Shown: one piece after another, positions 3,816 through 41,644 of the stretch
Numbering within the stretch: the stretch's first letter is position 1
How the letters are laid out: each line of letters opens with the position of its first letter
Assembly (NCBI GenBank): GCA_016788205.1
Contig: JAEUTA010000031.1
Span: forward strand, 42,576-106,575
Length of the DNA: 64,000 nucleotides
Reading direction: 5' to 3'
DNA from: Flavobacteriales bacterium
GTDB lineage: Bacteria; Bacteroidota; Bacteroidia; Flavobacteriales_F; PHOS-HE28
Made by a program: the position numbers and the translations under genes
The notes under the pieces: model-generated
Told to the model about the DNA's origin: nothing
The model's database searches: none
What the model saw: only the letters and a program-made list of their open reading frames with translations

Positions 3816-5216
3816 TTAGTAGTGACACTTGGCGCATTCCCAGCCGCCAAGCTCCTTCACACTGATCTTCTCGTCCTCCAGGTACTTCTTCAATTCTTCG
3901 TGGCCCATGTCGGTATCCTCCAAGCGGGCCATGATCTCGTCGTAGTAGCCGTTGCCGGCCATCTTCACATCCTTGGTATTGTGGCAGTCGATGCACCAGC
4001 CCATGGTGAGGGGCGCCCACTGCTCGGCCACGTCCATCTTCTCGTCGATGGGACCATGGCACTCCTGGCACTCCAGCTTGCCCACGGAAACGTGCTGCTG
4101 GTGGTTGAAGTAGGCGTGGTCCGGCAGGTTGTGCACCTTCACCCACTTCACGGGTTCGGGCTTGCCGGTGTAGGCCTTGCCGTCCCAACCCACGGCCGCG
4201 TAGATCTTGGCGATCTCCTTGGTGCCTTCGGGTGTACGGCCTTCGTTCACCGCACTGTGGCAGTTCATGCACACGTTGGTGCTGGGGATGCCCGCGTGTT
4301 TGCTCTTCTCGGCGCTACTGTGGCAATACTGGCAGTTGATGGCCAGGTTGCCCTTGTCGGCCTTGCCCGCGTGCAGGGTGTGGTTGAAGAGGATGGGCTG
4401 TTCGGGCTTGTAATGTGGCACTTCATCACCACCGTACACACCGATCACGAAAGCGGCATCCCATAGTTTCAGGATGAGGAAAACCACGATGAACAAGCCG
4501 AGGATGCTGGCAGCCGCTTTATTGTGCCAGGCCCAGTTGCGCAGGCGCTGGCCGAAGCTCATGTCCGGCTCCGGCTCTTTGCCTTCCGCTTCGCGGACCG
4601 CGTTGTTGAGGCTGCGCTTGACGCCGCTGAGGCTGAGCCCTACAACGAGCAGCAATAGGGCGATGACAACGAGCCAGGGCCAGTTGGAAGTTTCGCCCCC
4701 TGGAGTGACCGTTGTGGGATCCGGCCCCTTGGGAACAGGGGGCACGTACGCATCCGCATACGCCAGCACCGCATCGATCTCCTCGTCCGTGAGGGTTTGC
4801 GCGGTCATCACGCTCTTGTTCCACTTCGCGAACAGTTCCGTGGCATACGGATTGCCGGTCTTCAAATAAGCCGAGCTGTTCTTCACCCAGGCATGGATAT
4901 CGCCCTTCCCTTCCCAGCGCGCTTTGGCGCCTTTCAGGGCGGGACCGGTCATGTCCTTATCGGGCTTGTGGCAGCTGGCACAGTTCCCTTTGAACAGCTT
5001 TTCTCCGTCCGGTTGCGCGAAGGCCACCGTGGCGAAGAGGAACAAGAAGACTGATAGGGAAATGTTAAAGAGCCCGGGGGAACGTTCTGAAATCCTTGCT
5101 ACAAGCGGCATTCCGAGCATTTTAGAAGGGACAACCATCCGTTTGTCCGGCCGCAAAAATAGCCAGCGGACCAATTGGGGGATAGCCGGTTGACGTGCTT
5201 GCCACAGCGATGTCAC
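3816..5216 (-). CDS. actA: Alternative complex III cytochrome c subunit ActA. Six CxxCH motifs: an N-terminal class-I-like cytochrome c domain, two TM helices, then a pentaheme domain.
   Basis: CxxCH motifs: CASCH, CQYCH, CMNCH, CQECH, CIDCH, CAKCH. Signal/anchor segment LSVFLFLFATVAFAQ and hydrophobic helices WLVVIALLLLVVGLSL and ILGLFIVVFLIL. Directly upstream of actB. Confidence 0.85.
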   Translation of the reverse strand: MTSLWQARQPAIPQLVRWLFLRPDKRMVVPSKMLGMPLVARISERSPGLFNISLSVFLFLFATVAFAQPDGEKLFKGNCASCHKPDKDMTGPALKGAKARWEGKGDIHAWVKNSSAYLKTGNPYATELFAKWNKSVMTAQTLTDEEIDAVLAYADAYVPPVPKGPDPTTVTPGGETSNWPWLVVIALLLLVVGLSLSGVKRSLNNAVREAEGKEPEPDMSFGQRLRNWAWHNKAAASILGLFIVVFLILKLWDAAFVIGVYGGDEVPHYKPEQPILFNHTLHAGKADKGNLAINCQYCHSSAEKSKHAGIPSTNVCMNCHSAVNEGRTPEGTKEIAKIYAAVGWDGKAYTGKPEPVKWVKVHNLPDHAYFNHQQHVSVGKLECQECHGPIDEKMDVAEQWAPLTMGWCIDCHNTKDVKMAGNGYYDEIMARLEDTDMGHEELKKYLEDEKISVKELGGWECAKCHY

Positions 5217-12849: not shown

Positions 12850-14799
12850 ATGGTACGCAGAAGGAAGCCCCTTCTACTTCTCGGTGTGGTGCTCGTCGTG
12901 GTGCTGTCGGGAGCATGGACGGAGGCCAACCGACCCGTGCGCGGTCCTCACGGCAGACTAGCGCTTGCCCTTTTCCGCAGTGTGAGCGACACCTTACCGG
13001 TGCTGCGCAGCAACTACTTCTGGACGAGCGGCCGCTGTGCGGGGTGCCACGGACGTGACCTGCTGGGTGAGGCCAGCATCGACCCGGCCAACGGACGTGA
13101 TGTGAACGTGGTGAACGACTGGCGCAGCACCTTGATGGCGAACAGTGCGCGCGATCCTTTCTTCCGCGCGAAGCTGGACCATGAGGCGTTGGTGAACCCG
13201 GCACATAGCGAAGCGTTGAGCAACAAATGCCTGAGCTGCCATGCTCCGCTGGCCATGCACGAAGAACGTATGGCGGGCCGGCCGCCTTTCACCGCAGCCA
13301 TGTTGGACACCAGCGTGCTGGCCGGTGACGGCGTCAGCTGCCTGGCATGCCACATGCAAAGCCCCATTGATGCCGGTCACTTCTTCAGTGGCGACCTACA
13401 TTTCGACAGTGCCCATGTCTATGGGCCTTACGCAGATGACCAGATCGACCCGAACATCATGCAATCGTTCGTGGGATTCACACCCGGATTCGGCGATCAC
13501 ATGGTGAACAGCGAAGTATGTGCCGGTTGCCACACGCTGATCACGCAGACCGTGGACCTGCAAGGGAACACGACCGGTGATGAGTTCGTGGAACAAGCCA
13601 CCTACCATGAGTGGAAGAACAGTGTTTACAGCGCCAACGATGTACACTGCAACACCTGCCACATGCCGCGCGTGGAGGGGCCGGTGATCTTGGCAGCGGA
13701 GTATGCGTTCCTGCCTGGTCAAACACCGTTCGGACTGCACCACCTGGCCGGAGCGAACGTGCATATGCTGGAGATCATGAAGGCGAATCGTGAGGCTTTG
13801 CACATCCCTGCCACCGAAGAACAGTTCGACAGTACGATCGCGCGAACGAAGGCCATGTTGATGCAGCGTACAATGGATGTGGACCTCGATCCGATGGGAC
13901 GCACAGCGGACACCGCTTTCTTCGATGTGCGCCTGACCAACCGTGCAGGGCATCGCTTCCCGAGCGGATATCCTTCCCGTCGCGCCTTTGTGCGCCTTGT
14001 GGTGCGCAATGCGGACGGCGACACCGTTTTCGCCAGCGGTCTAGTTGATGATACGTTCGAAGTGCTCGGCCACGATACCCCATATGAGCCGCACCATGAT
14101 GTGATCCGCAGGGAGGAGGATGTGCAGATCTACGAGCTGGTGATGGGCGATGTGAACGGCGACCCGACCACCGTGCTGGAGCGCGCGAAAACCCCTTTGA
14201 AGGATGACCGTCTGGTACCCCTCGGCTTCACCACAACGCATGCGAGCTACGATACCATGCGTATAGCTGGCGTTGCGCTGAACGATATCGATTTCAATCA
14301 CGATGCGTTCGGGGCTGAAGGCAGCGGGACCGATGTTGTACACTACCATGTTCCCGTCAGCGGTGTAAATGGTGCTCTTCTGGCAACAGCACAGGTCTAC
14401 TACCAGCCTATACCACCCGCTTGGAATGCAGCGATGTTCGCCTTCAATTCCGCATACATCGATACGTTCCGCACCATGCTCGGCCAGAGCGATCATTCAC
14501 CCATCCTCGTGGCCGCCGACTCCATCGGCTTAGGACCGCTCGGTGTGGCGGCATCGTCGCTGGAGCGCATCACCGTATCCCCCAATCCGAGCCTTGACGG
14601 CACAGCGGAGATCCGTTTTGCGAGCCATGAACGGGTCGAACTCGTGACCGTCTACGATGCTCGAGGTGCGGTTCTGAGCATACCGACAGAGCGACGCAAC
14701 AATAGCCTGCGTCTGACACTACCGCCAGTAGCAGGCGTCTACTTGATACACCTGCTGGTGAACGGCAGCCCTGTGCTGAAGCGCATCGTTCGCCGATGA
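12850..14799 (+). CDS. Multiheme (pentaheme) c-type cytochrome with a T9SS C-terminal sorting domain.
   Basis: N-terminal signal/anchor (LLLLGVVLVVVLSGAWTEA). Five CxxCH motifs: CAGCH, CLSCH, CLACH, CAGCH, CNTCH. An HRFPSGYPSRR segment. The C-terminus has a Por/T9SS CTD signature (VSPNPS...VYDARGAVL...AGVYLIHLLVNGSPVLKRIV). Confidence 0.8.
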   Translation: MVRRRKPLLLLGVVLVVVLSGAWTEANRPVRGPHGRLALALFRSVSDTLPVLRSNYFWTSGRCAGCHGRDLLGEASIDPANGRDVNVVNDWRSTLMANSARDPFFRAKLDHEALVNPAHSEALSNKCLSCHAPLAMHEERMAGRPPFTAAMLDTSVLAGDGVSCLACHMQSPIDAGHFFSGDLHFDSAHVYGPYADDQIDPNIMQSFVGFTPGFGDHMVNSEVCAGCHTLITQTVDLQGNTTGDEFVEQATYHEWKNSVYSANDVHCNTCHMPRVEGPVILAAEYAFLPGQTPFGLHHLAGANVHMLEIMKANREALHIPATEEQFDSTIARTKAMLMQRTMDVDLDPMGRTADTAFFDVRLTNRAGHRFPSGYPSRRAFVRLVVRNADGDTVFASGLVDDTFEVLGHDTPYEPHHDVIRREEDVQIYELVMGDVNGDPTTVLERAKTPLKDDRLVPLGFTTTHASYDTMRIAGVALNDIDFNHDAFGAEGSGTDVVHYHVPVSGVNGALLATAQVYYQPIPPAWNAAMFAFNSAYIDTFRTMLGQSDHSPILVAADSIGLGPLGVAASSLERITVSPNPSLDGTAEIRFASHERVELVTVYDARGAVLSIPTERRNNSLRLTLPPVAGVYLIHLLVNGSPVLKRIVRR

Positions 14800-17041: not shown

Positions 17042-18028
17042 CTAGCTTCCTGCTGGCGTCCACTTCTCGATCATCCCATCAACGGGCTTCACCGTCCGGA
17101 GGTAGGAGTAAATAGCGCCGAGATCCTCCTCGGTCATGCTTGCATACATCATCCATGGCATGGCGGTCTGCATATCGCCCCGTGCCCAATCCACGGGTGG
17201 TGCAACATAGCCGCTGTCCGCATACATCTTGAACCGCTGGATGAACTGCTCCTTCGTCCAACGCCCGATGCCACCATCTTCACTCGGAGTGATGTTGGGG
17301 GAGCGTAACAGGGAGCCGTTGGGGAAAACGAATTCGAACCCACCTGCGAACGGTTCGCCCACTTTTTCACCCTTTTCCATCTTCGTGTGGCATTCACCAC
17401 AACCGGCTGCATTGGTAAGGTAGGCGCCCAGCGCAAGTATATCCGAAGCTGCGGGGCGTTCGGTGGGTGCAGGCCTTGATGGAACCGTATGCAGGATAAC
17501 ACTAACAGGGAATACCGCCCGGCTCTCCGCCACTTGGTTCTCGATGGCCGGCACACTGCGCAGGTAAGCGATGATACTATACACATCCTCGGTGGCCAGC
17601 TTGTTGTAGTTCGGGTAGGGCATGACCGGGAAGAACGGATGACCATCCTTGCTGATGCCACTGGTCATGGCGCGGTACAATTCACCATCGCTCCACGAAC
17701 CCACGCCTGCCGGGGTGATGTTGCGCGAGAAGAAGGTACCGGGGAAGTTCATCGTCTCGTCGAACCGTTCGCCGCCTTTGCCCAAGGTTCCAGGGACCAT
17801 CGGTGCAGCGTAGGTGTTCCAATCGCGGGTGCTGTGGCAGTCCATGCAAACGCAAACACTGTTGGCCAGGTAGCGCCCGCGCTCTATCCGCTCAGGCGTG
17901 GGCTCCACCTTGAGATCGGCGGGCGCATCGATGTCGGGCAATGCGGTCGTGATGTAGGTGACCGCACCTACGCCGAGCAGTATGATCAACAGCAAAAGGA
18001 TGCCGAGCACCTTCAGGAACTTCTTCAT
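17042..18028 (-). CDS. Membrane-anchored diheme cytochrome c.
   Basis: N-terminal anchor MKKFLKVLGILLLLIILLGVGAV. Two CxxCH motifs (CMDCHS, CGECHT), each followed by Met-containing class-I-like domains. Immediately downstream of the YdeP-family gene. Confidence 0.8.
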   Translation of the reverse strand: MKKFLKVLGILLLLIILLGVGAVTYITTALPDIDAPADLKVEPTPERIERGRYLANSVCVCMDCHSTRDWNTYAAPMVPGTLGKGGERFDETMNFPGTFFSRNITPAGVGSWSDGELYRAMTSGISKDGHPFFPVMPYPNYNKLATEDVYSIIAYLRSVPAIENQVAESRAVFPVSVILHTVPSRPAPTERPAASDILALGAYLTNAAGCGECHTKMEKGEKVGEPFAGGFEFVFPNGSLLRSPNITPSEDGGIGRWTKEQFIQRFKMYADSGYVAPPVDWARGDMQTAMPWMMYASMTEEDLGAIYSYLRTVKPVDGMIEKWTPAGS

Positions 18029-18109
18029 GGGAGAGGATGAAGTGGTCACGTTAATGACCGTGTAGTGATGTTGCGCAGGGAAGGTAGGACTCCTCGGCGA
18101 CAAGCCACT

Positions 18110-32628: not shown

Positions 32629-33111
32629 CTATTCGATGTACGTGATGTCGAAGCTGGCCGTGATGGTCGCGGAGGTTCCGCCCAAGGGTTCCGTGAGGGG
32701 ACCCATCACAGAGCCGCGGATCCTGTTGGAGCCGGTGTCGTGCGAGTCAATCGTGAGCGTGGCCGGTGTGGCATCCGAACTCTCGTAGGCAAGGCCCATC
32801 CCTGTTGTGTAGAGCGCATGGTTCACATCGGTGGTCATGGCGTAAGTGCCGACTTCGAGCGAGTCCAACTCCAGCGTCAAGGTCATGCCCGCCGTGGAAA
32901 TGCCGTTGATCGTGATGACATCAGCCCCCAGATCACCGAAGAGGCTCGCGTTGGCGCAGAATGACTCTCCTGCGAAGGATGCTTGCAAACGTGCACCGGC
33001 GATGCCGCAGAGGGCCGCTGGAGCGCTCACCACCGGTGCGGCATCATCCTCCTTCTTACAGGAGAAAAGTGAAAGAACGAACAAGAAAGGCAAGGTGGAG
33101 CGAAGATGCAT
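32629..33111 (-). CDS. Lipoprotein, unknown family (paralog A).
   Basis: Lipobox LSLFSC. Paralogous to the next gene (shared CG..GAR.QA...G.SFC...TL.L.LD.L.VGTY...I..HD...R...DVTY). Confidence 0.6.
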   Translation of the reverse strand: MHLRSTLPFLFVLSLFSCKKEDDAAPVVSAPAALCGIAGARLQASFAGESFCANASLFGDLGADVITINGISTAGMTLTLELDSLEVGTYAMTTDVNHALYTTGMGLAYESSDATPATLTIDSHDTGSNRIRGSVMGPLTEPLGGTSATITASFDITYIE

Positions 33112-33155: not shown

Positions 33156-33647
33156 TCAGGGGTTCACACTGTACGTCACATCCAAGCTACCGGAGATAGC
33201 CTTGCTACTGCCGCTCATCTCGTTGCGCACACGCGCCTGAAAAGTGGCCTTCAGCCTATGCGCTGCGCCATCATGTCCGGTGATGATGACCGATCCAGCG
33301 CTGTCGCTGTCGGTAGTGTACGGTGTACCACCGCTCAGGTAGAGCACTGCGTTATCCGCTTCGCTGATGGTGTAGGTTCCGACACCTAACGTGTCCAATT
33401 GCAGGCTGAGCGTGTTACCCAGCAGGGCGATACCGCTTACTGTAGCGCTGTGCCCATCGGACATGGCGATTATCTGAGCATCGCCGCAGAACGATGATCC
33501 ATCCACCTCGGCTTGTACACGGGCCCCATCGCTACCGCAAGTGCTCGGGATGATGCCCAACTCCTCGGCCACTTCCTGGCCCGCCTTTGCACAGGCGGAG
33601 AGGGTGATGATGGACACGATGAGCAACAGGATGTTGATATGGCGCAT
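33156..33647 (-). CDS. Lipoprotein, unknown family (paralog B).
   Basis: Lipobox ITLSAC. About 35-40% identical by eye to paralog A across the full length. Start at 33647 (MRHINILLL). Confidence 0.6.
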   Translation of the reverse strand: MRHINILLLIVSIITLSACAKAGQEVAEELGIIPSTCGSDGARVQAEVDGSSFCGDAQIIAMSDGHSATVSGIALLGNTLSLQLDTLGVGTYTISEADNAVLYLSGGTPYTTDSDSAGSVIITGHDGAAHRLKATFQARVRNEMSGSSKAISGSLDVTYSVNP

Positions 33648-33751
33648 GGAGAGGTGTTTTGGCGCCCTTGTACGTTGGCCGCTACGCGGGGGATACATGC
33701 AGAAGCCCCGCTCAATCGAGCGGGGCTTCCGTGAAAAGGATAGACAGAGTA

Positions 33752-36595
33752 TCACTGCACCACCACGCGGCTTACGCGCACACCGCCTTCGTGGCGTACG
33801 TTCAGCGTGTACTCACCGGGGGCCAGTCCCTTCAGGTCCATGACGCTCACTCCGTTGGCCGAAACATCCAGGTTGGTGGACAACGACAAACGTCCGGTGA
33901 TGTCATGTACATCCAGGGCCACACGGCCTTTCAGACCAGAGAGGTCGATGTTCACGGTGCCATTGGTCGGGTTCGGCCACACTTTCAGCTCGTTGGCGGC
34001 AGCTGCCTCTGCGATGCTGTTCCCCGTGGAACCCACCGAAACCTGAACCTCTGTCCGCGGTCCGGCGCAAGCCGTGCTGGGCGACTTCACTTCGATGTCG
34101 TAGAAGAAGTAGTAGTACGCGGTGGCGTTGGCACCGCTGGCCGTGCTGCTCGTCATGCTACCCAAGGTGCCCAAAGCGTAAGGGTACGTGGGGTTGCTTC
34201 CAGCACCATCGCGCCACAACTGCGGGTTGCCACCCACCACGCGCAATCCGTAGGGTCCACCAGCTGGTACATTGAAATCGAGGGTAACGCGGCTCTCGCC
34301 GTTAGGGATGTTGAAAGTCCCCGTGGCCACCGTGCTGCCATTGCTCTGGTCGATCACCGCGATCGTGCGATTCGCCGCACCATTGGCATACACCTTCACG
34401 CTGGCGATGATCATGTCCTCATAAGCCGTGAAAAGCTGGTAGTTGTCAGCATTGGTATGATAGATACCGTTCGTGCTGTTGTTGGTACGACCGCCGTAAG
34501 CGATATCCCCGCCATGAATGGTGGTGGACGATACCCAGTAGGACGCGTCGGTATTGAGCACCGGGGTCACGAACGTGGTGCCGGTGCCTAGCACGGCACC
34601 ACCGTTGGCTTGACCGAACCACTCCAGGTTCTCGCCACTGGCCTCGAGCGTGGCGCTGTTGTTGAGGGCCGTGTTCACATCATCGGCAACGGGCGCATTC
34701 GGCGCGTCCAGCACGTCAACATCCACTGCATCGCTGGTAAAATCACCGCACACGCCGGCGATGGTAACCTCGTAAGAGCCGCTGGTGCTGACACTGATGG
34801 TCTGCGCGTTGCCTGCACCGTTGTTCCAAGTGTAGGAAGAAGCCGTGCTGGAAGAGAGCACCACTTCGCCGCCTTCGCAGAACTTGAGGTCGCCGTCGAC
34901 GTTCACGGTGGGCGTCTCATCCGGGCTCTGCTGCACGAAGATGCTGGTGGTACCGGAGCAGCCTTCTCCGTCGTCAATGGTAACGGTGTAGCTGCCTGCC
35001 GTTCCTACGGTGATGCTGCGCGTGGTGGCACCCGTGCTCCAAACATAGTCGTAGCCTTCATCGGCCGTGAGGATGAGCTCATCGCCATTGCCGCAGATGA
35101 TGGGAGCGGTAGGCGTGCTGATCGTAGCCACCGGACTGATGCAGGTGTTCTCGATCACGGTGATGGACTGGTCAACATCCAGATCGGTGAACGTTTCCAC
35201 CAAGCCACTCGGCCAACGGATGGTGAGCGTTGGGATGGTGGTGTTCTGGCCAAGACCGAAGTTGCAGGCGAAAGAAGTGACCATGCCGTAGCTCTCACCA
35301 GCCTTCACCTCGCGGACTTGGGTACCCCATGGACCGGTGATGGTGACACGCGCGCCAACGGCATCGCGGTTGCTGATGGTGCCTTGCAGGCGCACGGTGA
35401 AGTAATGGTTCGTGTTGCCGTCGTTCAGCCAAAGGCGGTCGGGGTTATTAGCGTCCGGGGTGATGTAGCCCCCGCCGTAGTTGGCGAAGAGGTCGATGAA
35501 GCCATCATTGTTGAGATCCCCCGTTGCAAAGCTGTGCAGGTCCTTACCGGCGGGCAGCAGGTTGTTCAGTTGTGTGAAGGTGCCGTTGCCGTTGCCCTTG
35601 AAGATGTACTCGTCGCCACCAGCGATCACCACGTCCAAGTAGCCGTCGTTATCCAGGTCCACGAATTTGCTCTGGAGGAAGAAGCCGTTCACTTCCATGC
35701 CGCAGCCGGAGGTGACATCGGCGAAGTGGCCTGTGCCGTCGTTCTCGAAGAGCTGGATGGTGGCATCATGGTTCGTTGCCACCATATCCAGATCGCCATC
35801 GTTGTCGTAATCACCGAAGTCGGCTGTCCATGTCTGGTTGCGGATCTCCAGGCCATAGCTGGCGGCTTGGTCGCTGTAGCTGTTGCTGCCGTTGTTCACG
35901 AACAGGCGATTCCAGCGGCGGCAATCGTTGGGGTCGTTCACCCCCTGGCGGCAGTGGGCGATGTAGAGATCCAGGTCATCGTCGCCATCGAAATCCGAGA
36001 AACAGCTGCCGTAGTTGCCGCTCATATCACCCGCCGTACCGGAGCAGGCGGTGGCCCAGTTGACGTAAGCGTTGTTGTTCATCGGCACACCACCGGCGTT
36101 GGTGAACCACAGGTTCGGAGCACCATCGTCATGGCAGGCGAACACATCCACGCGACCGTCGTTGTCCACGTCGCCCATGCTCATGGCCTGGGTGAAGATG
36201 TCCGGTCCGTTCAGGTCAGCCAGGGTGTACACGCCAGGGCTGGTGATGCGTACATAGTGGGAGCCGTCGTAGCTACCACCGCTGACCATGTCCTTGTGCC
36301 CGTTGTTATCCAGATCGGCGATAGCCCAACCCCACTGGCCGCTGTTACTAACCTGGCCGTAGTCCACCAAGGTGAACGTGCCGTCCGCGTTCTGGTAATC
36401 CACTTGGAACTGCCTTGCGTTGTGCAGTTTGGCGATGTCGTCCAGTCCATCACCGTTCATATCCACCACACCCATGCAACCGCCACTGATGGTGACGTTG
36501 CTCATGCGGTCGGTGGCATTGGTGAAGCTCAACTGCGCCATGGTCAGTGGCGCAACGAGCAAGGCCGGAATGCCGAGCGTAAGGTTCTTTAGCAT
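33752..36595 (-). CDS. CRTAC1-like protein: FG-GAP/VCBS repeats plus an ASPIC/UnbV domain, Ig-like repeats and a T9SS C-terminal sorting domain.
   Basis: Signal peptide MLKNLTLGIPALLVAPLTMAQ. DxDxDG calcium-loop repeats (DLDNNGHKD, GDVDNDGRVD, DFDGDDDLD, GDYDNDGDLD, VDLDNDGYLD, GDLNNDGFID). An ASPIC/UnbV segment (NHYFTVRLQG...GARVTI...). A CTD (LKVWPNPTNGTVNIDL...YTLNVRHEGGVRVSRVVVQ). Confidence 0.8.
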   Translation of the reverse strand: MLKNLTLGIPALLVAPLTMAQLSFTNATDRMSNVTISGGCMGVVDMNGDGLDDIAKLHNARQFQVDYQNADGTFTLVDYGQVSNSGQWGWAIADLDNNGHKDMVSGGSYDGSHYVRITSPGVYTLADLNGPDIFTQAMSMGDVDNDGRVDVFACHDDGAPNLWFTNAGGVPMNNNAYVNWATACSGTAGDMSGNYGSCFSDFDGDDDLDLYIAHCRQGVNDPNDCRRWNRLFVNNGSNSYSDQAASYGLEIRNQTWTADFGDYDNDGDLDMVATNHDATIQLFENDGTGHFADVTSGCGMEVNGFFLQSKFVDLDNDGYLDVVIAGGDEYIFKGNGNGTFTQLNNLLPAGKDLHSFATGDLNNDGFIDLFANYGGGYITPDANNPDRLWLNDGNTNHYFTVRLQGTISNRDAVGARVTITGPWGTQVREVKAGESYGMVTSFACNFGLGQNTTIPTLTIRWPSGLVETFTDLDVDQSITVIENTCISPVATISTPTAPIICGNGDELILTADEGYDYVWSTGATTRSITVGTAGSYTVTIDDGEGCSGTTSIFVQQSPDETPTVNVDGDLKFCEGGEVVLSSSTASSYTWNNGAGNAQTISVSTSGSYEVTIAGVCGDFTSDAVDVDVLDAPNAPVADDVNTALNNSATLEASGENLEWFGQANGGAVLGTGTTFVTPVLNTDASYWVSSTTIHGGDIAYGGRTNNSTNGIYHTNADNYQLFTAYEDMIIASVKVYANGAANRTIAVIDQSNGSTVATGTFNIPNGESRVTLDFNVPAGGPYGLRVVGGNPQLWRDGAGSNPTYPYALGTLGSMTSSTASGANATAYYYFFYDIEVKSPSTACAGPRTEVQVSVGSTGNSIAEAAAANELKVWPNPTNGTVNIDLSGLKGRVALDVHDITGRLSLSTNLDVSANGVSVMDLKGLAPGEYTLNVRHEGGVRVSRVVVQ

Positions 36596-36648
36596 GTGAT
36601 CTCCTTGCAGTTGGTTTTGTAAGCAGGCGAATGTAGGGGAGCGGGCCT

Positions 36649-37794
36649 TCAGCGGTCCAGCCCTTCGGCGGTGGACTGTGGAGATCCTGCCGGGGCGGCC
36701 AGGGGGGCATCCGTGCTGGTCTGGCGGCGTATGCTCTCCCGGTGCACGGCGTCCATGAACTCGCGGACGAACGCATCGCTGAGGCCGAGGTGCCCTCCCA
36801 AGCGCAGCTGTCGCCGCATGATGCGCTCCCACCGCTCGGGTTGCAATATGGCCACGTTATGCTCCCGCTTGTGGTCGCCGATGCGGGCGGCGATGTCCAT
36901 GCGGGCACCCATCTTCTGCGAGATCTCCTCGTCCAACTGGTCGATGAGGTCGCGTAGTTCCTCCAAGCGGTCGTGCATGGAAGGCGTGGGCAGGGCCTGA
37001 CGGAAGATGAGGCTCTCCACCAGCGCCGCATAGTCCGCAGGGGTCAGTTGTTGTTCGGCATCGCTGCGAGCCTTGGCTGGATCGGTATGCACTTCGATCA
37101 TAAGGCCACTGAGGCCCAGGTCCAGCGCCTGTTGTGCCACCAAGCCCACTTTGTCTCGACTGCCGGCGATGTGACTGGGGTCCCCCACGATCTCCAATTC
37201 GGGGAAGGCTGCCTTCAAGCGGATGGGGAATTCCCACATGGGACTATTCCGGAAAGGCGTGCGTTCGAACCACGAGAAGCCGCGGTGTATGGCTGCGTAG
37301 CGCTTGAGCCCGGCCCGTTGCAGTCGCTCCAGCGCCCCTATCCATAGTTGCAGGTCCGGATTGATGGGGTTCTTCACGAACACCGGTATGTCCACCCCGC
37401 GCAAAGCATCGGCTATCTCCTGAACACTGAACGGGTTGGGTGTGGTACGGGCGCCGATCCAAAGCATGTCAACGCCGGCCTTCAGGCAGGCCTCCACGTG
37501 CTGCGCCGTGGCCACCTCCGTAAGGGTGAGCAGACCTGTGGACTCCTTCACGGTGCGCAGCCATTCCAGACCAGCATCACCACTGCCTTCGAAAGTCCCG
37601 GGACGCGTACGGGGTTTCCAGAGCCCAGCGCGGAATACCTGCGCCTGCCCTCTCGCTGCCAGGCCACGCGCGGTGGTCAGCATCTGGGTTTCGGACTCTG
37701 CGCTGCACGGGCCGGCGATAAGCAGCGGCCGATGCAGCCCCAGGCCCCAGTCGGCGAAGGGCTGCGGATGCAAGGCGGGAACGGCGGAAGACAT
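36649..37794 (-). CDS. Bifunctional 3-deoxy-7-phosphoheptulonate (DAHP) synthase / chorismate mutase.
   Basis: A type I-beta DAHPS core (LLIAGPCSAESE...VFRAGLWKPRT...) with a C-terminal AroQ-type chorismate mutase domain (RLEELRDLIDQLDEEISQKMGARMDIAARIG). Confidence 0.85.
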   Translation of the reverse strand: MSSAVPALHPQPFADWGLGLHRPLLIAGPCSAESETQMLTTARGLAARGQAQVFRAGLWKPRTRPGTFEGSGDAGLEWLRTVKESTGLLTLTEVATAQHVEACLKAGVDMLWIGARTTPNPFSVQEIADALRGVDIPVFVKNPINPDLQLWIGALERLQRAGLKRYAAIHRGFSWFERTPFRNSPMWEFPIRLKAAFPELEIVGDPSHIAGSRDKVGLVAQQALDLGLSGLMIEVHTDPAKARSDAEQQLTPADYAALVESLIFRQALPTPSMHDRLEELRDLIDQLDEEISQKMGARMDIAARIGDHKREHNVAILQPERWERIMRRQLRLGGHLGLSDAFVREFMDAVHRESIRRQTSTDAPLAAPAGSPQSTAEGLDR

Positions 37795-37917
37795 CGGGCA
37801 CAAAGGTAGCGGGCCCAGAACCCGGCCGCTCGGCCTTCAAAGGGTGAGCGTCGGATCGGCAGGGCAACGAAGACCGCCATCCGACGCGTCCTCTCCATAT
37901 TCGCCTATCCCTATCCT

Positions 37918-39042
37918 GTGCGCCATCCCGTGAAGAAAGTTCTCGCCCTCGTCCTGCTCTTGTTCGCCATTCTGGTCTCCTGTACCAAGGAGAACCTGCA
38001 AGAGAGCCTCGTCGTGTTCGAGGATCAAGGCGATCGTTTGGAACTGGATCCTCAACAATTCCCCTTCAACGCCCTCTCCAGTTACCACTTCTTCAAGGGC
38101 CACATGGCGCTGCAGAAACCCGTTCTGGGCGTTCTGCCCTATGCACCCATCAACGCACTGTTCAGTGACTACGCGCACAAGTTCCGCTTCGTGTGGATGC
38201 CTGCTGGTACGCACGCCACCTACAATGGCGACAACGAGGTGCTGGACTTCCCGGACGGTACGGTGCTGATCAAGACCTTCTATTACGACCGGGTGCAGCC
38301 CGCAGATGTGCGCCGCCTCGTGGAGACCCGCCTGCTTTTCAAACGCAACGGCGCATGGGAATTCGCCAACTACGTGTGGAATGCCCAACAGACCGAGGCT
38401 ACGCTGGATCTGAACGGGAGCTACACCCCCATAACTTGGGTGGAAGAGGGCGGTGCCACGCGCACGGTGAATTACCGCATTCCGTCCCAGGCCGAGTGCT
38501 TCACGTGCCACAAATTCGATGGCGTTTCCACACCCATCGGTCCCAAACCGCAGAACCTCAACAGTCTTTTCAGCTACGGCGACAAAACCGGTTTCGCGAA
38601 CACAGCGAACAAGAACCAACTCGCCCACTGGGTTCAGCAGGGCTACCTACAGCCGGGTTTCCCCAAGCGGATCGCCACTGTGCCACGTTGGGAAGATGTC
38701 GCCCTGCCGCTGACCGATCGCGTACGCGGCTACGTGGACATCAATTGCGCCCACTGCCATCGCGAGGGAAGCCACTGCGACTACCGGCCCATGCGCTTCG
38801 CCTACAGTGAAACCGCCGACCCAGAGAACCTGGGGGTCTGCGTGCCACCGGACGACCCTCTGTTGCCGCAGCACACGTTCATCGTCGCTCGCGGCAATAC
38901 CGCACGCTCTCTGTTGCACTATCGCGTAGCCGCCACCGATGAGGCCGAACGCATGCCGCTCCTGGGGCGCACCCTCGTGCATGATGAGGGCCTCGCCCTG
39001 ATCACCGAGTGGATCAATAGTCTTTCTCCCGCCTGCCCGTAA
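37918..39042 (+). CDS. Diheme c-type cytochrome lipoprotein. Its C-terminal domain resembles the planctomycete-type cytochrome c (PSCyt1-like) pattern.
   Basis: Lipobox LVSC. Two CxxCH motifs (CFTCHK, CAHCHR). The second is followed ~65 aa later by RSLLHYRVAATDEAERMPL, resembling the PSCyt1 '...SlL..ri....deeeRMPP' tail. Confidence 0.65.
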   Translation: MRHPVKKVLALVLLLFAILVSCTKENLQESLVVFEDQGDRLELDPQQFPFNALSSYHFFKGHMALQKPVLGVLPYAPINALFSDYAHKFRFVWMPAGTHATYNGDNEVLDFPDGTVLIKTFYYDRVQPADVRRLVETRLLFKRNGAWEFANYVWNAQQTEATLDLNGSYTPITWVEEGGATRTVNYRIPSQAECFTCHKFDGVSTPIGPKPQNLNSLFSYGDKTGFANTANKNQLAHWVQQGYLQPGFPKRIATVPRWEDVALPLTDRVRGYVDINCAHCHREGSHCDYRPMRFAYSETADPENLGVCVPPDDPLLPQHTFIVARGNTARSLLHYRVAATDEAERMPLLGRTLVHDEGLALITEWINSLSPACP

Positions 39043-39067
39043 ACCGATCAAAACCGACCTGCAAGTC

Positions 39068-41029
39068 ATGAAAAGAACCCTACTCCTCTCCCTACCGCTG
39101 GCACTGACCTTGCCTGCGGCCGCACAGAATTCCTGTTGGACGGCACTGCCCGTTAGCGAAGGCATTTACACGGTTGAAGCCGTGGATGGTGCGCCCTCAC
39201 CCGGTAACGCCTGCCCCTATGGGGATGGCCTGCACGCCGAGTGGTACACGTTCACCAGTCCGGTGGATACCGGAGTTGTCATCAGCACCAGCTTCGGGGA
39301 GGAACCAACCGATACCCGCATTCAGGTGTACACCGGGGTCTGTGGTGCCTTGGTGTGCATGGTAGGCGATGATGATTCAGGCAACGGCTACTCCTCGGAA
39401 CTGGACTTCACCGCGGTAGCCAATGTGACGTATTATTTCAACTTCGATGACAACTGGTCCGCTGATGGGTTCCAGTTCAGCATCACCCTCTTCCCTCCAC
39501 CTCCGCCACCGCTCAACTTGATCGACTTCGTGGAGACCGAAGTACCCGGAATGACCTACTCCCTGGGGGCCGTGGACATGAACAGCGATGGTCTGGACGA
39601 CATTCTTGACCCCACGGAGACCAACGTGCACATCGGCCTTCAACAGCTGGACGGTACGTTCCAGTTCGTGGACATCGCCACCAGCCCCGCCGACCACGTG
39701 GCGTCCTGGAGCCTTTGCGTGGGAGATCTGGACAAGAACGGCGCCAATGACATGCTCTATGGCGCTGGTGATGGTGTCACGCTCATGTTCGCCAATGAGG
39801 ACGGCACCGCCTTCACCGAAGTATCCTACGACGAATACATCTTCTGCCAGCGCACCAACATGGTGGACCTCAACAACGATGGCCACTTGGACGCCTTCAG
39901 CTGCCACGACGTGGACGCCAACGTGGGCTTCATCAACAACGGCACTGGCACCCTCGTGTATAGCCAGGGCGGCTACGGTGAGACCTGCGGCAACTACGGA
40001 TCGGTCTTCACCGATTACAACAATGATGGCCTCATGGACCTCTTCGTTTCCAAATGCGGCTGCGATCCGGAAGATCTGCTCATGCCCAACTCCAACGGCG
40101 GCATCTTCACCGATGTGGCCCCTGACATGGGTTGGAACGACCAACACCAGAGCTGGAGCAGCGCTTGGGGCGATTATGACAACGACGGCGATATGGACGC
40201 CATGATCGGCAGCAGCAGCAGCACTGTGCACAAATTCATGCGCAACAACGGCGACGGCACCTTCACCAACGTAACCAACGAGGTGGGCGTGAACGCCAAC
40301 GAAGGCCAGAGCATCGAGTGGACGACCCACGACTTCAACAACGATGCCTGGCTCGATATCCTGGGCGGCGACGGAATGCTCATGAACAACGGAGACGGCA
40401 CCTTCACCTTCGACGCGAGCGTGCCTTACAATGGACCGATCGGAGACATGGACAATGATGGTTACCTGGACATACTGGATGCCGGAAGCATCCATTACAA
40501 CCAAAGCACCGGTAACAACTGGTTGCGGATCTGGCCCGTTGGCTCGGTGAGCAACCAGAACGGCATTGGTGCGCGAGTGCATGTGATCACCAACGGTGTA
40601 CACCAGATCCGGGACATAAAGAGCGGCGATGGATTCCGCTACATGAGCAGCCTGCTGGCCCACTTCGGCCTGGGAGCGGCCACCACCGCCACCGTGGAGG
40701 TGCACTGGCCCAGTGGCATCGTCGATCACATCGAGAACGTGCAACCCAACGCCACCTTGGTGGTGAACGAAGGACTGTTCAGCTCTATGCCTGAAACGCG
40801 CACCACGACCCTTAGCCTCTTCCCGGTGCCCGCCACCGACCGCATTACCGTGAGCGGTGACGATGTGAACCAGCGCATGGCCCTCATCTTCTCCATTACA
40901 GGCCAGCTGGTGCAGAGCGATATGGTGCGAGCCAGCACACTGCACATCGGCGAACTCGCCAGCGGCGTATACCTGTTGGAAGTGACGACACCAAGCGGCG
41001 TGCTGAAGGAGCGCTTCGTGAAGGAGTGA
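39068..41029 (+). CDS. CRTAC1-like protein #2: an N-terminal PPC-like domain, FG-GAP repeats, an ASPIC/UnbV domain and a T9SS C-terminal sorting domain.
   Basis: Signal peptide MKRTLLLSLPLALTLPAAAQ. DxNxDG loops (VDMNSDGLDD, GDLDKNGAND, VDLNNDGHLD, TDYNNDGLMD, GDYDNDGDMD, HDFNNDAWLD, GDMDNDGYLD). ASPIC/UnbV segment (NNWLRIWPVGSVSNQNGIGARVHV...). A CTD (LSLFPVPATDRITVSG...GVYLLEVTTPSGVLKERFVK). Confidence 0.8.
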   Translation: MKRTLLLSLPLALTLPAAAQNSCWTALPVSEGIYTVEAVDGAPSPGNACPYGDGLHAEWYTFTSPVDTGVVISTSFGEEPTDTRIQVYTGVCGALVCMVGDDDSGNGYSSELDFTAVANVTYYFNFDDNWSADGFQFSITLFPPPPPPLNLIDFVETEVPGMTYSLGAVDMNSDGLDDILDPTETNVHIGLQQLDGTFQFVDIATSPADHVASWSLCVGDLDKNGANDMLYGAGDGVTLMFANEDGTAFTEVSYDEYIFCQRTNMVDLNNDGHLDAFSCHDVDANVGFINNGTGTLVYSQGGYGETCGNYGSVFTDYNNDGLMDLFVSKCGCDPEDLLMPNSNGGIFTDVAPDMGWNDQHQSWSSAWGDYDNDGDMDAMIGSSSSTVHKFMRNNGDGTFTNVTNEVGVNANEGQSIEWTTHDFNNDAWLDILGGDGMLMNNGDGTFTFDASVPYNGPIGDMDNDGYLDILDAGSIHYNQSTGNNWLRIWPVGSVSNQNGIGARVHVITNGVHQIRDIKSGDGFRYMSSLLAHFGLGAATTATVEVHWPSGIVDHIENVQPNATLVVNEGLFSSMPETRTTTLSLFPVPATDRITVSGDDVNQRMALIFSITGQLVQSDMVRASTLHIGELASGVYLLEVTTPSGVLKERFVKE

Positions 41030-41107
41030 TACTTGTGCGTCTGTTCTGATGAAGCGCTCCGCCCGGCGGGGCGCTTCACCTTTCCGATCGACCGTTTATC
41101 TTTCGGT

Positions 41108-41644
41108 ATGCGCCTAGTGCTGGCTACCCTGTTCTTGCCCTTACAGCTGCTGGGTCAACAGCCAACGCTCCCGCACGACCCTTACAAGGCGGTACCATCG
41201 GAGGTCGTCATAGGCTTGGGCATCGGCCAGCCCTTCGGTGGTATCGGGGCACAGCTCGCTGCGCGTCCAGCGGATCAGTTGGACCTTTTCGCCGGGGGTG
41301 GTTTCGTGATGTCGGGCATGGGCTATAACCTGGGCCTGCGTGTGCGCCTGATGCCCGCATCGCCCGCGTGCCCTTTCCTTACCGCCATGTACGGCTACAA
41401 CGCGGTGATCCACAGTAATGTGCCGCACTACAACACGATCTACTACGGACCCACCTTCGGAGGCGGGATCGAATTCCACGGAAGGCGACGTCCGGAGCGC
41501 TTCTTCAGCCTACACCTGCTCTTTCCGCTACGGCCGCAGGCCTACGACGACGACATCGAGGCTGCGAAGCGCAACCCCCTCATCACCGAGATCCAAGAAA
41601 CCTGGGATGTCACCATCGCACTGGGCTGGCACTTCGGGAATTGA
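41108..41644 (+). CDS. Hypothetical secreted / outer-membrane protein (Gly-rich, probable small beta-barrel).
   Basis: Signal peptide MRLVLATLFLPLQLLGQQ. Alternating Gly/aromatic segments and a C-terminal aromatic residue (WHFGN). No family recognised. Confidence 0.45.
   Translation: MRLVLATLFLPLQLLGQQPTLPHDPYKAVPSEVVIGLGIGQPFGGIGAQLAARPADQLDLFAGGGFVMSGMGYNLGLRVRLMPASPACPFLTAMYGYNAVIHSNVPHYNTIYYGPTFGGGIEFHGRRRPERFFSLHLLFPLRPQAYDDDIEAAKRNPLITEIQETWDVTIALGWHFGN

Follow-up and report, generated by a model that had tools for sequence, protein, structure and literature searches.

Organization of the locus

The window analysed here is a 64,000-nucleotide stretch of contig JAEUTA010000031.1 from a Flavobacteriales bacterium. 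An earlier note on this DNA had placed two CRTAC-like T9SS proteins in it, with a lipoprotein carrying two CxxCH motifs between them. All three genes are present at the positions given there. The two CRTAC-like proteins are hereafter named CRTAC-A and CRTAC-B. The locus contains the following features.

33752–36595, minus strand: CRTAC-A, the older of the two paralogues, comprising a propeller, UnbV_ASPIC, Ig-like domains and a T9SS tail (Pfam matches)
36649–37803, minus strand: bifunctional DAHP synthase/chorismate mutase (DAHP_synth_1, E 4.8e-37; CM_2, E 3e-17)
37930–39042, plus strand: diheme c-type cytochrome lipoprotein, divergent SO2930/TIGR03806-type (TIGR03806 profile)
37930–37983, plus strand: lipoprotein signal peptide with the lipobox LVSC at its end (from the translation)
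38497–38511, plus strand: heme-binding motif 1, CFTCH, closing the predicted beta-sheet domain (from the translation)
38746–38760, plus strand: heme-binding motif 2, CAHCH, in the predicted C-terminal helical class-I/PSCyt1-like domain (from the translation)
38953–38955, plus strand: M346, probable Met ligand of the cytochrome (from conservation)
39043–39067, plus strand: 25-nt spacer from the cytochrome stop codon to the CRTAC-B start, operon-like (from the sequence)
39068–41029, plus strand: CRTAC-B, secreted, 653 residues (Pfam matches)
40817–41026, plus strand: T9SS type A C-terminal sorting domain of CRTAC-B (Por_Secre_tail, TIGR04183)

The longest open reading frame of the cytochrome starts at 37918. 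The deposited NCBI protein starts at 37930 and has 370 residues. The open reading frame of CRTAC-A extends from 33752 to 36832 on the minus strand and its likely true start, MLKNLTL, is at 36595, which gives a protein of 947 residues. The DAHP synthase/chorismate mutase gene lies between CRTAC-A and the cytochrome, is oriented divergently to the latter and adjoins it in close relatives only. The distance between the cytochrome stop codon and CRTAC-B, previously noted as 26 nt, is 25 nt as counted here. A 203-residue open reading frame at 41033–41644 has no Pfam match at E<=10. A sigma-70 promoter and terminator scan, which does not cover Bacteroidota promoters, was uninformative and returned no terminator-like sites.

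The cytochrome is related to the SO2930/TIGR03806 family

The cytochrome aligns with the TIGR03806 profile over positions 3–314 of 314 (E 2.3e-83). Its score of 280 bits is below the curated cut-off of 313.3 bits, whereas canonical members score 349–394 bits. At NCBI it is 100% identical to a protein of a Flavobacteriales MAG that is named just "hypothetical protein". Homology to the SO2930/HNE_0200 family is full-length and takes in Met346, the probable ligand, as well as both invariant CxxCH motifs. Judged by sequence, the cytochrome has its place in the catalogued, uncharacterised SO2930/TIGR03806 family rather than standing as an orphan, and it is best regarded as representing a divergent sister subfamily.

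Canonical members are paired or fused with a TIGR03805 parallel beta-helix protein, as observed at 4 alphaproteobacterial loci and in fusion proteins. A TonB-dependent receptor adjoins in 4/4 canonical contexts. In some family members a GSDH (PQQ-type glucose/sorbosone dehydrogenase) propeller precedes the cytochrome domain in a single fused chain, which in P0248 also carries extra cytochrome c domains. A plasmid collection contained one canonical context only. Like the window cytochrome, canonical members have lipoboxes and are encoded beside, or fused with, a secreted beta-rich partner. In contrast, the window cytochrome has as its partner a T9SS-tailed, CRTAC1-like propeller where canonical members have a beta-helix lipoprotein. 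The cytochrome gene precedes that of its partner, the opposite of the canonical order, and no TonB-dependent receptor adjoins the pair. A network study of Shewanella (PMC4837345) places SO_2930 among outer-membrane/extracellular proteins.

Heme sites and domains of the cytochrome

The earlier note had left conservation of the CxxCH motifs in orthologues of the lipoprotein to be checked. Both motifs (C194/C197/H198 and C277/C280/H281) are invariant in 84 close and 89 diverse homologues, and the lipid cysteine is invariant in the 84. The AF2 model of the cytochrome (pLDDT 90.7) predicts a P460/c'-beta-like sheet domain (residues 70–190 approximately) and a PSCyt1-like His/Met relay domain. M346 is conserved in 97% of the diverse family members and the ligands of heme 2 are probably His281 and Met346. 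At heme 1, no conserved sixth ligand is present across the family. Met94 was considered for this position. It is invariant in close homologues but is replaced by L, V or I in other members, and it was rejected because of this variation. K88 and K119, conserved in at least 94% of members, are putative candidates for a P460-type lysine cross-link.

The predicted sheet domain may resemble P460/c'-beta proteins in having a beta-sheet domain followed by a CxxCH helix and in lacking a conserved distal Met or His. It differs from them in being fused to a second, His/Met heme domain and in being lipid-anchored, and the similarity is weak. The window cytochrome has no match to Pfam Cytochrome_P460; sub-threshold matches occur in 17/84 close and 33/89 diverse members (best E 5.4e-5), and the likeness is not significant with Foldseek. 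P460/c'-beta proteins bind NO or CO or oxidise hydroxylamine.

The PSCyt1-like tail of the earlier description stands at the level of the family and not of the individual protein. PSCyt1 (PF07635) was not matched by the window cytochrome with the limit relaxed to E<=1, or by its C-terminal 120 residues, which had no Pfam match of any kind at E<=10. Matches to PSCyt1 were obtained for 60/89 diverse family members (best E 1.5e-5). By profile comparison the resemblance is real for the family, with the window protein below threshold. CCP_MauG gave faint matches in 9/89 members (best E 0.069) and Mtrc-MtrF_II-IV_dom sub-threshold matches only. No significant match of the cytochrome to MauG was found by sequence or fold, and a search of PDB sequences with the cytochrome and its 84-sequence profile returned nothing usable.

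CRTAC-A and CRTAC-B

The architecture previously attributed to both proteins (FG-GAP repeats, ASPIC/UnbV, T9SS C-terminal domain) is borne out by Pfam and TIGR04183 matches above cut-off in each of them. CRTAC-A matches FG-GAP_3 (E 8e-32, 110 bits), UnbV_ASPIC (2.5e-17, 62.9 bits) and Ig_7, every Pfam match being above cut-off. Its tail matches Por_Secre_tail (E 4.5e-8, 33.7 bits, cut-off 27) and TIGR04183 (34 bits, cut-off 23). For CRTAC-B the corresponding values are E 1e-26 and 93.7 bits for FG-GAP_3, 3.5e-17 and 62.5 bits for UnbV_ASPIC, E 2e-7 and 31.6 bits (cut-off 27) for Por_Secre_tail and 32.9 bits (cut-off 23) for TIGR04183. The label FG-GAP/VCBS is half retained: FG-GAP_3 is matched, but no match to a Pfam family named VCBS was found in the CRTAC proteins. 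FG-GAP_3 (PF13517) is the model once named VCBS.

CRTAC-B is composed of a signal peptide, a four-cysteine beta-sandwich domain (residues 21–145 approximately), a calcium-loop FG-GAP propeller with UnbV_ASPIC (about 150–570) and a T9SS type A C-terminal domain. Residues P586, P588, G612, G633 and Y635 of the tail are conserved in orthologues. The N-terminal cysteine-rich domain has no Pfam match at E<=10. Besides the calcium loops and the disulfide cysteines, no site for a metal or cofactor is conserved among orthologues.

Vertebrate CRTAC1 (cartilage acidic protein 1/LOTUS; PDB 9etn) is also secreted and also consists of an FG-GAP calcium-loop propeller with UnbV_ASPIC. CRTAC-B is related to it at 18% identity (phmmer E 9e-11), and a fold test against the solved CRTAC1 structure gave the same three-dimensional fold. 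The bacterial protein differs by the additional N-terminal four-cysteine beta-sandwich and the T9SS sorting tail. Vertebrate CRTAC1 ends with an EGF-like calcium-binding domain. No EGF-like domain is found among the Pfam matches of the bacterial CRTACs, and their C-terminus is a T9SS sorting domain. CRTAC1 is a binding protein for which we know of no cytochrome partner.

The identity between the two CRTAC proteins, proposed earlier as a means to date their duplication, is 31% over 477 residues. Such a value corresponds to an old divergence and rules out a recent duplication. CRTAC-A is near the cytochrome in L001, L004 and L010 only, loci of close relatives. By this divergence it is an ancient paralogue, and it lies outside the conserved unit. 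The arrangement of two paralogues flanking the cytochrome, put forward earlier as a feature of the locus, is not what is conserved: CRTAC-A is syntenic in close relatives only and stands beyond an unrelated biosynthetic gene.

The cytochrome and CRTAC-B form a conserved pair

The cytochrome gene and CRTAC-B form a tightly conserved two-gene operon across Flavobacteriales. The neighbourhood survey covered 80 species-level genome loci from one order (mostly Flavobacteriales). Conservation of the cytochrome–CRTAC adjacency, whose absence had been set beforehand as a possible refutation, is observed in the surveyed genomes. A CRTAC-B-like gene is directly downstream of 84/96 cytochrome copies. Nearly every copy with readable downstream DNA is followed by a same-strand gene with FG-GAP, UnbV_ASPIC and T9SS tail (about 97% adjacency). 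The 12 exceptions include 2 contig ends, 4 cytochrome–cytochrome–CRTAC tandems, 2 second copies located after a CRTAC gene and locus L062, which masked bases interrupt. The CRTAC neighbour is missing only in the L004/L005 context and in L016. The L004 lineage has retained the cytochrome and lost the downstream partner; in L016 a different T9SS-tail protein comes after the cytochrome.

The gap between the two genes ranges from -10 to +70 nt in 76 orthologous pairs (median 27), and in nearly every Flavobacteriales species with the cytochrome the order is kept at a spacing of 25–30 nt. The pair is the sole gene cluster common to all contexts, the next real cluster being found in 25/83 loci, and in L006 it is embedded in wholly different gene surroundings. 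The whole unit is tandemly repeated in L053, L082, L086, L009 and L012, and the T9SS tail is kept in partner orthologues throughout. The link is asymmetric, since CRTAC-B-type paralogues (about 50% identity) also exist without an adjacent cytochrome. No TonB receptor, SusC/D or cytochrome biogenesis gene is a general additional neighbour of the Flavobacteriales pair, and no trans-outer-membrane electron conduit was found nearby.

A lineage-specific motif after the lipid cysteine

The export signal of Bacteroidota surface lipoproteins is C-X-K-(D/E)2-X or an acidic run of the S-D-D type (PMC5080379). In the Flavobacteriales branch of the cytochrome family, K is found at +3 in 75% and D or E at +4 in 97% of sequences. 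At least 2 acidic residues at +2 to +6 are present in 62–76% of this branch and in none of 108 canonical members (0/108). The acidic, export-like post-cysteine motif is, in these sequences, specific to the Flavobacteriales branch. In the window cytochrome the sequence is C-T-K-E-N. It agrees with the export signal in K at +3 and E at +4 and departs from it in N at +5; its motif, in which only one residue of +2 to +6 is acidic, is partial. A Big_9 Ig domain is inserted after the lipid cysteine in some orthologues. Among characterised Bacteroidota proteins, no c-type cytochrome lipoprotein exposed at the surface is known to us.

A possible two-protein redox module

A redox-linked surface function, as suggested in the earlier note, is the most economical reading of these results, as a prediction. 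We tentatively propose, at a likelihood that we place a little short of even, that the cytochrome and CRTAC-B are encoded as one operon and make up a redox module of two proteins on the external side of the outer membrane. The cytochrome would be flipped to the cell surface, a placement suggested by the K-(D/E)-rich stretch that follows the lipid cysteine in this lineage only, and would meet there the T9SS-exported propeller of CRTAC-B. Heme 2 (His281/Met346), in the PSCyt1-like domain, would serve as an electron relay. Heme 1, on the P460/c'-beta-like sheet, would be the reactive or ligand-binding site because it has no conserved sixth ligand. The calcium-binding CRTAC propeller with its N-terminal cysteine-rich domain would not be a cofactor enzyme but the subunit that binds the substrate or target. 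Canonical members lie next to a TonB-dependent receptor or are joined to a PQQ-type dehydrogenase, and by this analogy the likely role would be to oxidise or reduce an extracellular substrate or nutrient before uptake. A narrower version, a surface heme enzyme assembled from two export routes (lipoprotein flipping and T9SS) with the CRTAC1-type propeller capturing the substrate, seems to us rather unlikely.

The cytochrome could also act in the periplasm as a MauG-like maturation factor that oxidatively modifies CRTAC-B (cross-link, hydroxylation, disulfide) before export. MauG is a diheme enzyme acting on a propeller-containing substrate protein, and an open heme combined with a His/Met relay heme resembles the logic of diheme peroxidases and MauG. 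The faint CCP_MauG matches go in the same direction, as do the incomplete export motif of the window cytochrome and the passage of T9SS cargo through the periplasm, where c-type heme is attached. However, the lineage-specific export-like motif and the Ig spacer domains argue for a stable surface placement, CRTAC-B-type paralogues exist without the cytochrome, and MauG is not significantly matched by sequence or fold. Moreover, the partners of the family elsewhere (beta-helix, GSDH) differ in fold, which fits an electron-transfer module better. We consider such a maturase improbable. A similarly small probability goes to a stand-alone cytochrome enzyme or scavenger (of NO, hydroxylamine, H2O2 or similar), with CRTAC-B just co-expressed or serving as an anchor. 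The fold and weak sequence similarity to P460/c'-beta proteins, the missing sixth ligand of heme 1 and the persistence of the cytochrome without partner in the L004 lineage are consistent with it. Yet the near-constant adjacency in differing contexts, the operon spacing and the repeated fusion of this domain to partner proteins in other phyla indicate that the partner matters.

That the two genes have no functional link, their adjacency being inherited synteny or chance, is very hard to believe. The surveyed loci all belong to one order, so common descent contributes to the pattern. Nevertheless, the pair is conserved and its flanking genes are not, the whole unit recurs in tandem at five loci, and spacing is operon-like in 76/76 measured pairs.

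The proposed surface redox module can be compared with other known systems. Quinohemoprotein-type fusions, exemplified by the GSDH fusions of the same cytochrome family, also combine a propeller with a heme relay. In the present case the propeller belongs to the FG-GAP/CRTAC type, for which no cofactor is known; it is made as a polypeptide of its own and follows another export route. MtrC and OmcA of metal reducers are likewise lipid-anchored c-type cytochromes, and the window cytochrome shares with them a predicted position at the cell surface. It has two hemes and not ten, no porin–cytochrome conduit is found nearby, and the sole sequence relationship is the sub-threshold Mtrc-MtrF_II-IV_dom matches.

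Implications for CRTAC1 homologues and their cytochrome partner

CRTAC1/ASPIC-type proteins are widespread in bacteria and conserved to humans, and to our knowledge no bacterial member has an assigned function. Searches of the literature on SO2930/TIGR03806, on bacterial ASPIC/UnbV proteins with T9SS or cytochromes and on the CRTAC1 structure returned no account of the pair. With the cytochrome, bacterial homologues of CRTAC1 gain their first genomic partner that is conserved, and the pair is a new version of a known but unstudied cytochrome system. A near-obligatory two-heme operon partner offers a concrete, testable handle on the bacterial CRTAC1/ASPIC proteins.

As a redox module, the SO2930/TIGR03806 cytochrome appears to be portable: between phyla, it seems to have exchanged both its partner (beta-helix, PQQ-type propeller, CRTAC propeller) and its cellular address. 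A surface c-type cytochrome in ordinary aerobic Flavobacteriales would, if confirmed, be unusual, and would bear on extracellular substrate processing by these major polymer degraders. The surface heme enzyme, if true, would represent an unrecognised class of extracellular oxidoreductases in aerobic bacteria that are abundant in water and soil. The CRTAC1/ASPIC fold would thereby acquire its first biochemical role.

Gene organization of the region

The earlier note described two CRTAC1-like T9SS proteins around a lipoprotein with two CxxCH motifs. All three genes are present as placed:

33752-36595, minus strand: CRTAC-A, 947 aa from the signal-peptide-like start MLKNLTL
36649-37803, minus strand: bifunctional DAHP synthase/chorismate mutase
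37918/37930-39042, plus strand: cytochrome lipoprotein, lipobox LVSC
38497-38511, plus strand: CFTCH motif of the cytochrome lipoprotein
38746-38760, plus strand: CAHCH motif of the cytochrome lipoprotein
39068-41029, plus strand: CRTAC-B, 653 aa, with FG-GAP_3, UnbV_ASPIC and a T9SS tail

Twenty-five bases separate the cytochrome stop codon from the CRTAC-B start. CRTAC-A contains five FG-GAP_3 repeats, UnbV_ASPIC, Ig_7 and a Por_Secre_tail/TIGR04183 T9SS sorting domain. The FG-GAP, UnbV_ASPIC and T9SS assignments of the note are thus retained, while the family named VCBS gave no match; FG-GAP_3 (PF13517) is the model once called VCBS. The PSCyt1-like tail was not detected in the window cytochrome at Pfam thresholds. 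In the deposited record, from an uncultured Flavobacteriales bacterium, the cytochrome is a 'hypothetical protein' and CRTAC-B a 'VCBS repeat-containing protein'.

Directly 3' of CRTAC-B lies a 203-aa ORF (41033-41644, plus strand) whose N-terminus is signal-like and whose sequence is rich in glycine and resembles a beta-barrel. It has no Pfam or NCBIfam match, no homologue was recovered beside the pair in other loci, and it is absent from the recurrent ORF clusters. In L001, the locus of a close relative, the genes after CRTAC-B differ from those of the window.

Conservation of the cytochrome-CRTAC-B pair

A cytochrome profile scan of one genome per GTDB species gave 594 confirmed relatives, of which the best 80 loci were kept. 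Among them are Flavobacterium, Kordia, Lacinutrix, Psychroserpens, Winogradskyella, Dokdonia, Bizionia, Fluviicola, Wandonia and Cryomorpha, besides numerous uncultured lineages, with identities of 45-70%. Across all loci, 84 of 96 cytochrome copies are immediately followed, on the same strand, by a CRTAC-B-like gene, and neither the two CxxCH motifs nor the lipid cysteine vary in close homologues. The pair is therefore a conserved unit, and neither of the two observations that would have refuted the earlier note, an adjacency absent elsewhere or CxxCH motifs not conserved in orthologues, was made.

Of the 12 exceptions, most have an explanation: contig ends (2), cytochrome-cytochrome-CRTAC tandems (4), a masked-base interruption (1), and second cytochrome copies that have a CRTAC gene in front of them (2). 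A CRTAC neighbour is genuinely missing only in L016, where another T9SS-tail protein follows the cytochrome, and in the L004/L005 context. L004/L005 (GCA_902826215.1, contig CADEDY010000001.1) represents a natural partner-loss lineage: the cytochrome is 68% identical, the upstream DAHP synthase and CRTAC-A are kept, and an NA37 nucleoid-protein gene takes the place of CRTAC-B.

With start codons set at signal-peptide-like N-termini, the intergenic gap ranges from -10 to +70 nt (median 27, all 76 measurable cases). Clustering of all ORFs identified the pair as the sole content common to all loci; the next real gene cluster after it, found in 25 of the 83 loci, reflects genus-level synteny. In L006 the two genes overlap by 4 nt in wholly different surroundings. 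The whole unit is repeated in tandem in five loci (L053, L082, L086, L009 and L012), and up to three CRTAC genes follow one cytochrome in L008. FG-GAP_3, UnbV_ASPIC and Por_Secre_tail are present in every partner variant, some of which also contain MAM or fn3 domains.

CRTAC-A is an old paralogue of CRTAC-B, as judged from 31% identity over 477 residues. The cysteine-rich N-terminal domain of CRTAC-B is missing from it, and it has additional Ig-like domains. It is found near the cytochrome in close relatives only (L001, L004 and L010, with 80%, 68% and 70% cytochrome identity), always separated from it by the DAHP synthase gene. Two tandem DUF6252 lipoprotein genes (32629-33111 and 33156-33755, both minus strand) lie directly downstream of CRTAC-A, so that each CRTAC gene of the window has its own lipoprotein neighbour. 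In one of them the export-like motif is strong (C-K-K-E-D-D). CRTAC-A is followed by a DUF6252 gene in L001 as well, and an unannotated gene of the same size (163 aa) occupies this position in L004.

Localization signals

A type A T9SS sorting domain is present in CRTAC-B and in every orthologue of it, so these proteins should cross the outer membrane. After the lipid cysteine, cytochromes of the Flavobacteriales branch have K at +3 (75%), D/E at +4 (97%) and D/E at +5 (45%), with runs such as CSDDND and CGSDDND in marine genera. At the sequence level, these residues match the Bacteroidota lipoprotein surface-export signal, C-X-K-(D/E)2-X in Capnocytophaga and SDDFE in F. johnsoniae (PMC5080379). 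The window cytochrome, with C-T-K-E-N, matches it only partially. Two acidic residues after the cysteine are found in none of the 108 canonical members, which are mostly alphaproteobacterial, so the motif is a lineage-specific acquisition and not a family trait. That the partner's T9SS tail and the export-like motif were gained in the same lineage is the main argument that the two proteins would act together outside the cell, and not only encounter one another on the way there.

Some cytochrome orthologues have a bacterial Ig domain inserted behind the lipid cysteine. Seven marine Flavobacteriaceae loci (L081, L076, L079, L084, L048, L062 and L075) encode about 90 extra residues there, identified as Big_9 in L081, the one scanned. 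Partners in such loci are often enlarged by fn3 or MAM domains.

Cytochrome family and heme sites

Over its full length, the window cytochrome can be aligned with NCBIfam TIGR03806, 'SO2930 family diheme c-type cytochrome' (E 2e-83), at 280 bits, below the curated cut-off of 313.3. The family comprises 5948 representative clusters at E<=0.001. It and its beta-helix pairing are already catalogued, as uncharacterised; our literature search found no description of the function of any member, nor of a cytochrome-CRTAC pairing.

In all four canonical contexts examined (Novosphingobium, Sphingomonas, Erythrobacter and Caulobacter), the order is TonB-dependent receptor, TIGR03805 parallel beta-helix lipoprotein, cytochrome lipoprotein. 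The CRTAC pairing differs in gene order and export signals, and has no receptor gene. Ten long family representatives include six beta-helix-cytochrome fusions and two fusions to a GSDH propeller (PQQ-type glucose/sorbosone dehydrogenase), one of which, P0248, also carries extra cytochrome c domains. The fusions to a dehydrogenase suggest a part in electron transfer. Given this variety of partners (beta-helix, GSDH propeller, CRTAC), the family looks like a portable heme module serving various secreted beta-rich proteins. A further partner context is found on Pseudoalteromonas plasmid NZ_CP013139.1 (L089, 4607-11080), where an SO2930-like domain lies within a 2157-aa 'starch-binding protein' followed by a DUF1552 gene. 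In Sphingomonas sp. QA11 (L094:8167-9420), the canonical trio of receptor, beta-helix and cytochrome has behind it, with an overlap of 4 nt, a FAD_binding_4/ALO (sugar-lactone oxidase-type) gene and a D-serine dehydratase-like gene. These downstream genes may be a clue to the class of substrate that the canonical system handles.

PDB sequence searches returned no solved structure for the family. The AlphaFold model of the window cytochrome is confident (pLDDT 90.7). Among 89 diverse members, sub-threshold Pfam matches to Cytochrome_P460 (33 members, best E 5.4e-5) and PSCyt1 (60 members, best E 1.5e-5) independently support a P460-like and a PSCyt1-like fold. Both CxxCH motifs, E136 and W147 are invariant in these members. 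M346 lies in the 'RMP' loop preceding the last helix and, with 97% conservation, is the obvious candidate ligand of heme 2; the alignment contains no other conserved Met or His. M94, invariant in close relatives and variable across the family, was rejected as the sixth ligand of heme 1. This pattern suggests a relay heme with His/Met ligands and a second heme whose distal site is open or unusual and probably lined by the conserved K88, R90, K119, R138, Y152, W154 and Y186.

The window holds three more c-type cytochrome genes: 3816-5216 (minus strand; 466 aa, six CxxCH, c7/class III/class I matches), 12850-14799 (plus strand; 649 aa, five CxxCH, weak c7/c3/MtrC-domain matches) and 17042-18103 (minus strand; 353 aa, two CxxCH). 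These may make up a respiratory cluster, and their products could be electron partners for the lipoprotein. Eleven Flavobacterium loci (L022, L035, L041, L045, L049, L053, L056, L071, L078, L082 and L086) have a small block of genes in common, some 2-4 kb downstream from the pair. It encodes a monoheme lipoprotein of about 128 aa (CISCH, acidic post-cysteine motif, weak Cytochrome_CBB3 match; for example L053:10632-11018), a small membrane protein and, by eye, YceI-type-like and outer-membrane beta-barrel-like proteins.

Possible roles of the pair

Dependency within the pair is one-sided, as CRTAC-B types also occur without a neighbouring cytochrome (L091, L092 and three copies in L093). About 50% identical to CRTAC-B, with the same length and N-terminal domain, these proteins group together, apart from cytochrome-linked copies. 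That cytochrome and CRTAC-B are functionally unlinked appears extremely improbable. A MauG-like periplasmic cytochrome acting as maturase of CRTAC-B is unlikely, and we give no greater chance to a heme enzyme that acts alone on small molecules beside a passive neighbour. Other, unforeseen chemistry takes the remaining probability.

The best-supported reading, to which we give a little less than an even chance, takes the pair as a redox module of two proteins at the cell surface. On this reading, it is very probable that the two genes are functionally coupled, and location of both proteins at the surface is at least an even prospect, perhaps slightly better. The cytochrome would supply a reactive heme plus a relay heme, and the CRTAC-B propeller would supply target binding. 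Such a module may process an extracellular substrate prior to uptake, as the analogy to the canonical system with its receptor would suggest.
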